From the NCBI GenBank assembly GCA_038893835.1, contig JAWAQR010000012.1:1-36587 (forward strand): 36,587 nt of DNA, written 5' to 3'. Every line of letters begins with the position of its first letter. Position 1 is the stretch's first letter. The notes beneath the pieces are model-generated. The model was given only the letters and a program-made list of their open reading frames with translations, was not told where the DNA came from and did no database searches. Shown here piece by piece: positions 9,749 to 12,666 of this stretch. The translations under genes and the position numbers were made by a program. Origin of the DNA: Archaeoglobaceae archaeon (lineage in GTDB: Archaea > Halobacteriota > Archaeoglobi > Archaeoglobales > Archaeoglobaceae).

Positions 9749-10840
9749 ATGCGTTTCAGAATTTTAACTAGTCTAGCCATAATTTTGACACTACCATTTT
9801 TCCTCCTCTGCGTACAGCCGGGGGAAGAGAAAAAGGTGAACTGGACAGAGAACTTTAAAACGAGCCTGCATTATACAAGGGAGGGAAAGATAACCTTTTA
9901 CTCAGCAAAGAATGGTGGAATGGAATTACTGACAAACAAGCCAATAACGGATTTTGACTGCATAAAATGTCATGCAGAAACGAAGGCCAATGGAGAAAGA
10001 ATAGTGACAGAAAAATACACTCCAGACTGCTATGACTGCCATGTAATCCCTGGGGATAGAGTGAACGACTCAATTTGCCTTGGCTGTCATGCAAGGCAAA
10101 GAACGGAAATAATAGCGCTAAAACTTCCGGATGTTCATAGAGATCGCGGAATGAGATGCATGGACTGCCACACAAAGGAAGATGTGATGGGAGATGGAAA
10201 GCACTATACGACTTTGCTTAAAAGAGAGACGAGTGTTAAATGTGAGAGATGTCATGAATACAAAACAAACGTTGCCCACATTCTTCATGGAAGGGTTTAC
10301 TGCACTTCCTGCCATCAAACAACGGTTATAAGCTGTTATAACTGCCATCTGGAAAGTGCGGAGCAGCATCAGAAAAGAGCCTTTGGACCACTAGTCGGCT
10401 TTGAGATCCTCGTAAACTTCAATGGTAAGATATATCCGGCAAACTACATGACCGCTGTTTACAGAAATAAGACGTTTGTCACAATACAACCATTCTATTC
10501 ACATTCAATAACAAAGAATGCGAAGGAATGCTACGAGTGCCATGGAAATAGAAATGTGGAGGAATACCTTGCAACTGGAAAGATCGTGATGACAAAATGG
10601 GATGAAGGGAATAAAACGATGAGTTCGATCAAAGGAGTAGTCCCCCTTCCCCCTGACTGGAAAGAAGCTTTGATCTTCGACTACATAACATACACAGGTA
10701 ATCCCTCAGATCCTGTTAAATTCGATCCACGCAACTGGACATTTGTAAAGAACAGCTCAGATTTGATGCAAATTTGCTGCGCAGAACCTTTGAATAAGGA
10801 GCAATTGGAAAGAATTGCTAAGAAGTTTGGTCAAAAATAG
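9749..10840 (+). CDS. Octaheme c-type cytochrome, predicted lipoprotein or secreted
   Basis: Eight CxxCH motifs (CIKCH, CYDCH, CLGCH, CMDCH, CERCH, CTSCH, CYNCH, CYECH). N-terminal basic plus hydrophobic signal ends in Cys (FLLC). Confidence 0.9.
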
Positions 10841-10841
10841 T

Positions 10842-11132
10842 TTAAAACTTCAGATATCCTTTTCTTTCCAACCACTCAACCTGTGGATTCGTATACTTCC
10901 AAACTATGTCAGCCCGATCTTTTTGAAAGCTCCAAGGAACTACGATAACGACATCTCCTTCCTTTATCCATATTTTTTTCCTCATCTTCCCTGGAATTCT
11001 GCCCAATCTTTCAACTCCATCTTCACATCTCACCTTTATATGCCCAGCTCCAAGCATTGAGGAGACAATACCAAACATCTCTCCCTTTTCCCTGTCTGGA
11101 AGCCGAACTCTGATTACCTCCTCTTCGCCCAG
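10842..11132 (-). CDS. eif1a: Translation initiation factor aIF1A, probable CTG start
   Basis: [38 protein letters not shown]. The conserved N-terminal IRVRLP lies upstream of the first in-frame ATG (11078). SD GGAGGTG is 5 nt before an in-frame CTG at 11132. Confidence 0.9.
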
Positions 11133-11137
11133 AGTGA

Positions 11138-11172
11138 CACCTCCAAAAAAGAATCTGGGCTTTGTTTAAATA
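11138..11172 (-). promoter_or_regulatory. TATA box (TATTTAAA) and perfect SD (GGAGGTG) of aIF1A
   Basis: TATA at about 11165-11172 and SD at 11138-11144 on the minus strand. Confidence 0.65.
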
Positions 11173-11174
11173 AT

Positions 11175-11507
11175 TTATCTAAACAACTTCCGCTGAAGTG
11201 AGTCTATCTTTTCTCCAAGTTCTCTTATTTCCGGTCTTATAGCTTTTGAGATCCTATCTTCAAGCTCGTCGGAGCTTATTGCTATGGCTCTCTTAACATT
11301 CTGAAACTCCTCAGTCATCGTCTGCATCCTCAATTCTACACTTATCAAAAAAAGCGCAAGACTTGAAATCAACAAAGCTGCTAGAAATATTATTACATGA
11401 TCCACCTTGTCGTAGAGAGATAGCCACTTATAAACAAGTCCTGTCGCGGAAAAAATCATCACAATCGAGAGAACTATTTCCCTACCAATTTCTCTCCATG
11501 ATAGCAT
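11175..11507 (-). CDS. Hypothetical membrane protein (two TM helices plus coiled coil)
   Basis: Two hydrophobic segments followed by a heptad-like C-terminus. TATAAATA box lies about 22 nt upstream of the ATG. Confidence 0.75.
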   Translation of the reverse strand: MLSWREIGREIVLSIVMIFSATGLVYKWLSLYDKVDHVIIFLAALLISSLALFLISVELRMQTMTEEFQNVKRAIAISSDELEDRISKAIRPEIRELGEKIDSLQRKLFR

Positions 11508-11625: not shown

Positions 11626-12666
11626 ATGGATCTAGGCTGTAGACTTGTCAAAGAGGGCTTTGAACCTGGAGATTGTCTTGTTTATCATGCAAACGAAAAA
11701 AGACCAGCCTGCAAGGTTACACTTAGATGGAAGGATGGTAATCCCTACAGACTAATACATTCCTACGCACATAAATCACCCGAGCAATATCTCTCCATTT
11801 ATCAATCAGGATGTAACTGGAGTTGCAAGAAATGCCATTCTTGGCGTTTTACTCGTTACTCCTCTGGTTTTTGGATGTCTCCAGAAGATATCGCAAGGAT
11901 TTCCATGGAATACTGGATGAGAAACAGAGATAACATTTACAAAGAACCAAGAGAAAGAGCTACAAGCTGGCATGTCCATGAGCTTTGCAGAGGTTGTGGC
12001 TCATGCATTTTGAACGTTAGAAGGTCAAAATTTTGCCCTGGAAGACTTAGACTGGATCAGATAACTTTACTCGACGACTTAACCTGGGGCGCGGCGAGAA
12101 ATATAATATCATTTACAGGCGGAGATTTGGCTTGTCAACCGGAATTCTATGCTGAATCTGCAAAAGCGATCAAAGATTTGAATCTTGATCTTTGGGTTTT
12201 ATTCGAAACAAACGGTTACGGATTAATTCCAGAAACTCTTGATTTATTCAAAGACTCCGGAATCGATTCTTTTTGGTTAGACATCAAGGCTTACGATGAA
12301 AAAATTCATAGAACGCTAACCGGTGTTTCGAACAAGCGAATTTTGGAGTTGCCGGAAGAGATTGTTGAAAGAGATTTTGTCTTAGAAGTCTCAACTGTTT
12401 ACATTCCTGGCTGGGTGGAAGAGGATCAAATAAGGAAAATAGCAGAATTGCTTTCAAGTGTGGATCGGAAGATACCTTATGCAATAATTGCGTTCATACC
12501 AGAATACGAGCTCAGAAATTTGAACCCTCCAAATTTTCAGCAAATGTTAAAGGCTTATGAAGTTTCAAGGGATGCTGGATTAAAGAACGTGAGATTGGGG
12601 AATGTAGGAGTATTTGTGAAAACCTTGGAAGAATATGAGGAATTGATTCGGATTGGTGCAATTTAA
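11626..12666 (+). CDS. Radical SAM protein, PFL/glycyl-radical activase-like
   Basis: CNWSCKKC radical SAM motif, extra CRGCGSC...CP cysteine cluster, SFTGGD, ETNG and LDIKA motifs. Confidence 0.8.
   Translation: MDLGCRLVKEGFEPGDCLVYHANEKRPACKVTLRWKDGNPYRLIHSYAHKSPEQYLSIYQSGCNWSCKKCHSWRFTRYSSGFWMSPEDIARISMEYWMRNRDNIYKEPRERATSWHVHELCRGCGSCILNVRRSKFCPGRLRLDQITLLDDLTWGAARNIISFTGGDLACQPEFYAESAKAIKDLNLDLWVLFETNGYGLIPETLDLFKDSGIDSFWLDIKAYDEKIHRTLTGVSNKRILELPEEIVERDFVLEVSTVYIPGWVEEDQIRKIAELLSSVDRKIPYAIIAFIPEYELRNLNPPNFQQMLKAYEVSRDAGLKNVRLGNVGVFVKTLEEYEELIRIGAI

Follow-up and report, generated by a model that had tools for sequence, protein, structure and literature searches.

In bacteria the gene for the translation initiation factor IF3, infC, starts with AUU, a near-cognate codon kept behind a Shine-Dalgarno (SD) sequence, as in the archaeal aIF1A gene; CUG reportedly falls (Sussman et al. 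1996), in E. coli, in the same poorly used codon class as AUU, against which IF3 discriminates. The likeness to the archaeal gene described below has its bounds: IF3 belongs to another protein family and another domain of life and is a direct proofreader, whereas aIF1A is a homologue of IF1, and feedback has been shown experimentally for infC, whereas the aIF1A start is known here from sequence. In eukaryotes the corresponding case is eIF1, which works in the same e/aIF1-e/aIF1A-e/aIF2 core and whose own start is suboptimal (Ivanov et al. 2010, as cited in PMC6237735). The weakness there lies in the context of a scanned AUG, whereas in aIF1A it lies in a non-AUG codon placed by an SD; moreover the archaeal counterpart of eIF1, aIF1, starts with an ordinary ATG in the genomes considered here.

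According to the literature, e/aIF1, e/aIF1A and e/aIF2 take a direct part in start-codon selection (PMC6412873), non-AUG complexes are destabilised by aIF1 (PMC6237735, PMC4705826) and the archaeal start codons are AUG, GUG and UUG (PMC4705826). Control of start-codon fidelity in archaea has otherwise been barely explored, and the CTG start of aIF1A offers a concrete way in that genetics in Methanosarcina or A. fulgidus could follow. Here a single gene, one that encodes an initiation factor, has kept a near-cognate start over deep divergences, which bears on the question whether feedback through poor start sites is a principle common to the initiation machineries of the three domains.

Start site of the aIF1A gene

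Within the window, by which we mean the whole stretch of 36,587 nucleotides that was analysed, the start region of aIF1A is made up of the following features:

10842-11132, minus strand: aIF1A coding sequence, 96 codons plus a TAA stop, with a CTG start, as given by the table-11 listing of open reading frames (ORFs)
11130-11132, minus strand: CTG, near-cognate and very probably the start codon; the sole SD-led start-like codon from the in-frame TAA up to the conserved block
11138-11144, minus strand: Shine-Dalgarno sequence GGAGGTG, 5 nt upstream of the CTG and complementary to the 16S rRNA 3' end
11166-11168, minus strand: in-frame TAA that closes the frame upstream, read from the sequence and the frame translation
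11076-11078, minus strand: ATG (Met19), the first canonical in-frame codon; on our reading internal and not the start, at a position that is not conserved in relatives

On the minus strand the TAA is followed by ACA AAG CCC AGA TTC TTT TTT GGA GGT GTC ACT and then, from the CTG on, by CTG GGC GAA GAG GAG GTA ATC AGA GTT CGG CTT CCA GAC AGG GAA AAG GGA GAG ATG, so that in-frame ATG, GTG and TTG are absent between TAA 11168-11166 and ATG 11078-11076. Five nucleotides, TCACT, separate GGAGGTG from the CTG, and since the 16S rRNA of the same genome ends in GGATCACCTCC, with which GGAGGTG pairs over 7 nt, the SD is a perfect one. As an SD-led near-cognate start we counted a codon standing 4-9 nt from a sequence complementary to the 16S 3' end and opening a frame devoid of canonical starts; at aIF1A the SD is in range and the frame has no canonical start. 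Two other candidates were set aside: GTG 11140 lies inside the SD and opens another frame, which a TAA closes after 8 codons, and ATC 11114 stands 1 nt after GGAGGT, at a position where many relatives have GTA, GTC or GTT.

Positions 10700-11400 are spanned by Logan contigs from two hot-spring metagenome runs of two studies (X1, X4), one of which runs may be the source sample, and the sole listed difference falls at 11349; the CTG is not a sequencing error, and because relatives carry CTG too this check is almost redundant.

The product is aIF1A. It matches PF01176 (E 5.6e-26; 90.4 bits against a cut-off of 30.2) and the TIGR00523 equivalog (161.3 bits against 102.9), it is the sole PF01176 match in the genome (G000; 1.17 Mb, 97% complete), and the organism, an Archaeoglobaceae-like archaeon of hot springs, thus has this one aIF1A gene. 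The 18 codons from CTG to ATG encode the conserved aIF1A N-terminus: the 96-aa form spans positions 5-98 of the 98 in TIGR00523, whereas the 78-aa form covers 22-98 only, a start at ATG 11078 thus costing profile positions 1-21. Among solved structures the protein matches M. jannaschii aIF1A (PDB 1jt8; E 3.3e-35), with residues 3-94 aligning with residues 6-98, and P. abyssi aIF1A (4mno, 5jb3, 6sw9; 4e-28); these belong to the same family and, compared at the protein level, the (E)VIRVxLP block encoded between CTG and ATG aligns with them. The N-terminal segment that precedes the OB fold in the solved archaeal proteins is present only if CTG is the start. The preliminary description of this locus had noted the lack of a canonical in-frame start before ATG 11078, the SD 5 nt before CTG 11132, a 96-aa protein from the CTG and a conserved IRVRLP segment encoded upstream of the ATG, and had allowed for a sequencing error at 11132: the layout re-reads the same, the ORF 10842-11132 is listed with table-11 starts, IRVRLP aligns with 1jt8 and TIGR00523, and the metagenome contigs show the same letters.

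Coding character sets in directly after the CTG, third-position codon periodicity starting at codon 2. Across 23 aligned family loci (L018 and L050 being omitted from this count because of indels), codons 2-5 have third-position entropies of 0.97-1.35 and invariant second positions; first-position entropy is 0.67 at codon 2, and first and second positions are at about 0 in codons 3-5. The CTG itself is invariant (23/23), and the leucine of RVR-L-P is encoded in these genes by CTT in 22, CTC in 17, CTG in 12, CTA in 7, TTG in 5 and TTA in 5. Upstream, conservation in the family is confined to positions -4 to -11, which hold the SD, and is not kept from -12 outward. Judged by these substitution patterns, the start-site CTG is no ordinary leucine codon and the stretch downstream of it is coding. 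The position of the window's Met19, on the other hand, is occupied in L018 and L026-L031 by CTC, CTT, ATT, ATA, GTC, GTA or GTG, and an N-terminus beginning LANY is common to Methanosarcina-type and Methanothrix-type loci. Taken together, the comparisons make it very probable, close to certain, that CUG 11132 is the translation start of aIF1A.

Conservation of the start within and beyond the phylum

Kin of the window were drawn from its own genus out to the phylum, giving 41 genomes with 48 aIF1A copies, the 5' region of each of which was read; four weak matches (E 5e-4 to 1e-3, in ORFs of 304-660 aa) were not counted as aIF1A. CTG is the start codon in 41 copies, TTG in 4 and ATG in 2, with 1 unclear. 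All 41 CTG copies sit behind an SD of the GAGGTG, GGGGTG or GGAGG type, and the 2 ATG copies, which are high-GC and haloarchaeon-like, are without one. Counted by genome, CTG is found in 37 of 41, by family in 12 of 14 and within the genus in 20 of 20, and three genomes have it at both of their aIF1A paralogs; several loci hold a stop codon inside or just before the SD, which leaves CTG as the only option there. An alignment of this kind had been proposed earlier as a check for a conserved near-cognate codon at the SD-defined position, with ATG throughout the close relatives as the outcome that would tell against it: the codon is conserved (41/48 copies), and the relatives proved to be the opposite of what that outcome required, all 20 genus genomes having CTG.

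A scan of species-representative genomes, confined to the window's phylum, added 80 named loci from Archaeoglobi, Methanosarcina, Methanolobus, Methanothrix, Methanocella, Methanomicrobiales, Methanoperedens, ANME-2 and Alkanophaga. With exact duplicates taken out before counting (3 from this set and 3 from the metagenome set below), there are 125 distinct loci spread over Archaeoglobi, Methanosarcinales, Methanotrichales, Methanocellales and Methanomicrobiales, of which 100 have SD plus CTG and 6 SD plus TTG under a classifier that works by exact substrings and so misses GGGGGGT (L023-L025) and a 2-nt spacer (L032), L041 being unclear. In 59 of the 100 SD-plus-CTG loci there is not one ATG, GTG or TTG from the upstream stop to the conserved block. 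ATG occurs in Methanimicrococcus and Methanolapillus, with a weak SD or none, and in the haloarchaeon-like pair; the mean SD match length is 4.5 at ATG loci (or there is no SD) against 5.8 at CTG loci. Far more often than for ATG, CTG has been swapped for another weak start (TTG, once ATA), though all such counts overstate the number of evolutionary events because kin are not independent.

Two local departures deserve a line of their own. The insect-gut methanogens Methanimicrococcus and Methanolapillus (L055, L057-L063, L066, L067), with ATG behind a weak AGGA- or AGGT-type SD or none, are the main reversion to ATG within the Methanosarcinales sample, and a Methanotrichaceae MAG contig (L073) reads ATA, then ATC, at the start position after GAGGTGG, one near-cognate codon exchanged for another.

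Across these lineages a factor that takes part in choosing start sites has a gene whose own start stays suboptimal. CUG appears, from the loci compared, to be kept in most SD-using lineages of the phylum, AUG being confined to cases of a weak or missing SD, and we consider it likely that the weak start codon of aIF1A is under selection.

The SD-led CTG is no chance arrangement. When G000 was scanned for GAGGTG with a codon 4-7 nt further on, no canonical start since the upstream stop and at least 60 open codons, the orphan SD-led codons were ATG at 67 sites, GTG at 10, TTG at 10 and CTG at 4, any other codon occurring at most 3 times. Widening the range of SD motifs and spacers gave 6 distinct CTG sites; on inspection two stand directly before an ATG, two belong to unlikely ORFs and two are left, namely aIF1A and a membrane gene resembling an antiporter subunit (G000:C17:17406-18833, L212, outside the window). 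The latter encodes 476 aa from a CTG placed 5 nt after GGAGGTGAT, in a CTGA overlap with the TGA of the preceding ORF. In the 12 readable loci of its relatives the start is TTG in 8 and ATG in 4, CTG being found in G000 only; with such an ordinary gene the start drifts within the genus, whereas that of aIF1A does not. By this comparison aIF1A is the only conserved CTG start in G000. The gene for aIF1 (SUI1) in the same genome starts with ATG behind AGGAGG, and its relatives in 29 readable loci have ATG in 28 and GTG in 1 (one locus in each set was unreadable: L220 in the antiporter set owing to an N run, and L241 in the aIF1 set at a contig end).

To look beyond the phylum, metagenomes were scanned with an aIF1A alignment from outside Halobacteriota, which yielded 77 distinct loci: 58 with SD plus TTG, 12 with SD plus CTG, 5 with SD plus ATG and 2 unclear. 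The 12 CTG loci are of Archaeoglobi and Methanothrix types, and the 5 ATG loci come from other lineages, one of them being 99% identical to an Asgard-named query. The TTG group has GGAGG(AG) with the TTG mostly 7 nt downstream, and its nearest named proteins, at 76-86% identity, are from Methanobacterium, Methanobacteriaceae, Methanobrevibacter and Methanosphaera. With 58 of 77 loci showing SD plus TTG, a strong SD with a non-AUG start is the rule in Methanobacteriales too, TTG being a canonical weak codon; Thermococci, Methanococci, Thermoplasmatota, TACK and Asgard lie essentially outside this sample. The Methanobacteriales-like loci (L134-L194, for example L150:389-691) have a near-invariant GGAGGAGAGTAT TTG leader at a locus GC of 17-41%.

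What the weak start may be for

Our preferred reading is a regulatory one. The 7-nt SD, lying 5 nt upstream, would place CUG 11132 as the start of the 96-aa aIF1A; initiator Met-tRNA would read that CUG with a first-position mismatch; and the mismatched complex would be intrinsically weak and of the type rejected by aIF1, together with aIF1A and aIF2, in the 30S core. Because the aIF1/aIF1A/aIF2 core rejects CUG-type complexes, the output of aIF1A would run inversely to stringency and to factor occupancy of the 30S subunit: synthesis would go down under high stringency of initiation or high aIF1A occupancy and up under low. The outcome would be a homeostatic negative feedback, analogous to that of infC with its AUU and IF3 and of eIF1 with its poor start context.

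Autoregulation of start-codon stringency of the infC/eIF1 type is plausible by that analogy, and deep fixation, a strong SD and near-exclusivity to an initiation-factor gene speak for regulation rather than a mere set-point, though they fall short of proof. The exchange of CTG for other weak starts far more often than for ATG lends indirect support as well, as does the ATG of aIF1 in the same genomes. That normal ATG also counts against feedback, aIF1 being the canonical proofreading factor. Archaeal aIF1A, moreover, has no eukaryotic C-terminal tail and only a short N-terminal one (PMC6412873), and with the eukaryotic tails absent it may alter stringency only slightly, or in either direction. 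On balance we put it at a little short of an even chance that the weak codon serves feedback, be it on stringency or on the amount of the factor itself. The wider proposition is that in SD-using archaea the CUG of the aIF1A mRNA (UUG in Methanobacteriales) may be a built-in sensor of initiation stringency, that aIF1A, the universal homologue of IF1 and eIF1A, may be an autoregulated fidelity node, and that all three domains may have independently wired one initiation-factor gene to a poor start; drawn by analogy, it has a probability of roughly 0.35.

No sensing by any factor is needed if CUG and a strong SD simply fix aIF1A synthesis at a low, constant rate, for example relative to a co-transcribed tyrS. 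Near-cognate start codons are inefficient, as known from work in E. coli; the gene is often in a tyrS operon, where tuning at the level of translation is the only route to a different output; and the ATG versions come with a weaker SD or none, which is consistent with a low output being kept. A fixed low set-point would in fact account for much of the same pattern. Such a set-point could, however, be reached in other ways (a weaker SD, GUG or UUG), so that drift would be expected, as at the antiporter start; CTG is instead fixed in 12 of 14 families and in both paralogs, and it is confined to an initiation-factor gene. We regard a constant low rate as the whole explanation as rather unlikely.

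The operon itself raises another possibility, for which the surroundings upstream of the start are needed:

11175-11507, minus strand: 110-aa ORF upstream of aIF1A, of no known family (no Pfam match), in the place of tyrS
11165-11173, minus strand: TATA-box-like TTATTTAAA, in the 42-nt gap; conserved in the genus loci that share the 110-aa ORF

In Archaeoglobus-like and several other lineages the ORF upstream of aIF1A is instead one of 327 aa, which we take to be TyrRS-like from its HLGH and KMSSS motifs and from BLAST between loci rather than from Pfam. It was found upstream in 29 of 186 classified loci, and in 20 of these its stop overlaps or abuts the aIF1A start (-7 to +5 nt; 15 CTG and 5 TTG), mostly as CTGA or TTGA; where tyrS adjoins, the SD of aIF1A lies inside the last tyrS codons. 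The CTGA form is seen in L018, L019, L024, L029, L030, L034, L050, L051, L205 and L208, and TTGA in L117 and L124. These NTGA overlaps look, from their layout, like a termination-reinitiation arrangement with a near-cognate start, and resemble the NTGA overlaps at which termination-reinitiation has been described in archaea (PMC10666635).

Ribosomes terminating on tyrS could then reinitiate at the overlapping CTGA, codon identity being of minor account and CTG a relic of the overlap, and it fits this idea that the other CTG gene of G000, the antiporter subunit, is also a CTGA overlap. The window itself departs from the scheme, with another upstream gene than tyrS and a 42-nt gap (45 nt if counted to the CTG from where the upstream stop codon begins), so that start and stop do not overlap here as they do in the 20 related loci. 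Elsewhere, upstream flanks of 300-1500 nt hold no TyrRS-like ORF at 87 loci that keep CTG all the same, and coupling therefore cannot be the general reason for it; nor does an overlap force CTG, because ATGA would need just one synonymous change, GTC to GTA, in tyrS. Coupling as the source of the CTG is on these grounds improbable.

Similarly small is the chance that CUG answers some other input, be it growth rate, stress, temperature or an aIF2/aIF5B-dependent route, or that it is even decoded by elongator tRNA-Leu; the genome does have a tRNA-Leu(CAG) gene and two tRNA(CAT) genes, but positive support comes from no result here. As to an RNA structure that might serve as sensor, folds around the start in 25 family loci taken singly have z-scores mostly from -1.6 to +0.9 against mononucleotide shuffles and are dissimilar, and RNAalifold on 21 loci gives -0.08 kcal/mol with 0 covarying pairs, that is, no conserved RNA structure. 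Several folds share a pairing between the SD and CUUCC in the Leu-Pro codons, which is without support. Among public runs none of RNA was found to cover the aIF1A locus, and one metatranscriptome run had zero contigs over it.

Annotation and surroundings of the locus

Public annotation speaks with two voices. NCBI MEM0302601.1 and others are the exact M-start product of the CTG ORF of locus L009, under the name 'translation initiation factor eIF-1A [Archaeoglobaceae archaeon]', and the metagenome locus L205 holds a CTG ORF that equals A. fulgidus aIF1A (O29481.2 / WP_048064286.1; 97 aa, MSSEDDVIRV...) from residue 2 on. Database entries thus already model the CTG start, the L205 ORF for the identical protein beginning at CTG. 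The A. fulgidus protein shares a 90%-identity cluster with close relatives of the window protein; its records give no regulatory interpretation, and the comparison is by protein, with the DNA taken from L205. Other pipelines deposit truncated aIF1A products of 78-88 aa, those of 78 aa being common in public collections, and gene callers restricted to ATG, GTG and TTG remove at least 18 conserved residues from aIF1A. That translation begins at ATG 11078 and gives 78 aa, in line with the output of many gene callers and with deposited products such as P0017 and P0027 from A. sulfaticallidus, or that the CTG is an assembly error or a pseudogene lesion, is highly improbable, since the internal Met is not conserved in relatives, the truncated form lacks 21 TIGR00523 positions, coding periodicity runs from the CTG on, two assemblies agree and CTG is conserved phylum-wide.

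In open-access full-text papers and preprints we found no description of a CUG start in aIF1A (supplementary start-site or N-terminome tables lie outside that search). The earlier statement that nothing of the kind had been described in archaea holds for that literature, but not for the databases, where NCBI and UniProt already annotate from CTG. As far as searched, then, the CTG start is absent from the literature and present in database annotation.

The 42-nt gap has features of its own. TTATTTAAA, at 31-33 nt from the CTG in four loci measured by eye, is a possible promoter element to judge from its sequence. Standard archaeal spacing would, if it is one, put the first transcribed base inside the SD or directly behind it, and with a transcript starting so near the SD the SD-led model would be complicated for this genus. 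The intergenic TTATTTAAACAAAG (window 11133-11180, minus strand) resembles the AAATATTTAAACAAG codons (K-Y-L-N-K) that related genera have at the 3' end of their tyrS, and it may, as a weak inference from this likeness, be what is left of a vanished tyrS and now serve as a TATA box.

On the plus strand, aIF1A is flanked by two genes of other kinds. A 363-aa multihaem cytochrome c (window 9749-10840), with eight CxxCH motifs counted from the translation and Pfam matches to Cytochrome_C7 and Paired_CXXCH_1, is convergent to aIF1A, their stops lying 1 nt apart, and a radical-SAM protein of 346 aa (window 11626-12666; PF04055, E 1.8e-20) is divergent from the 110-aa ORF.
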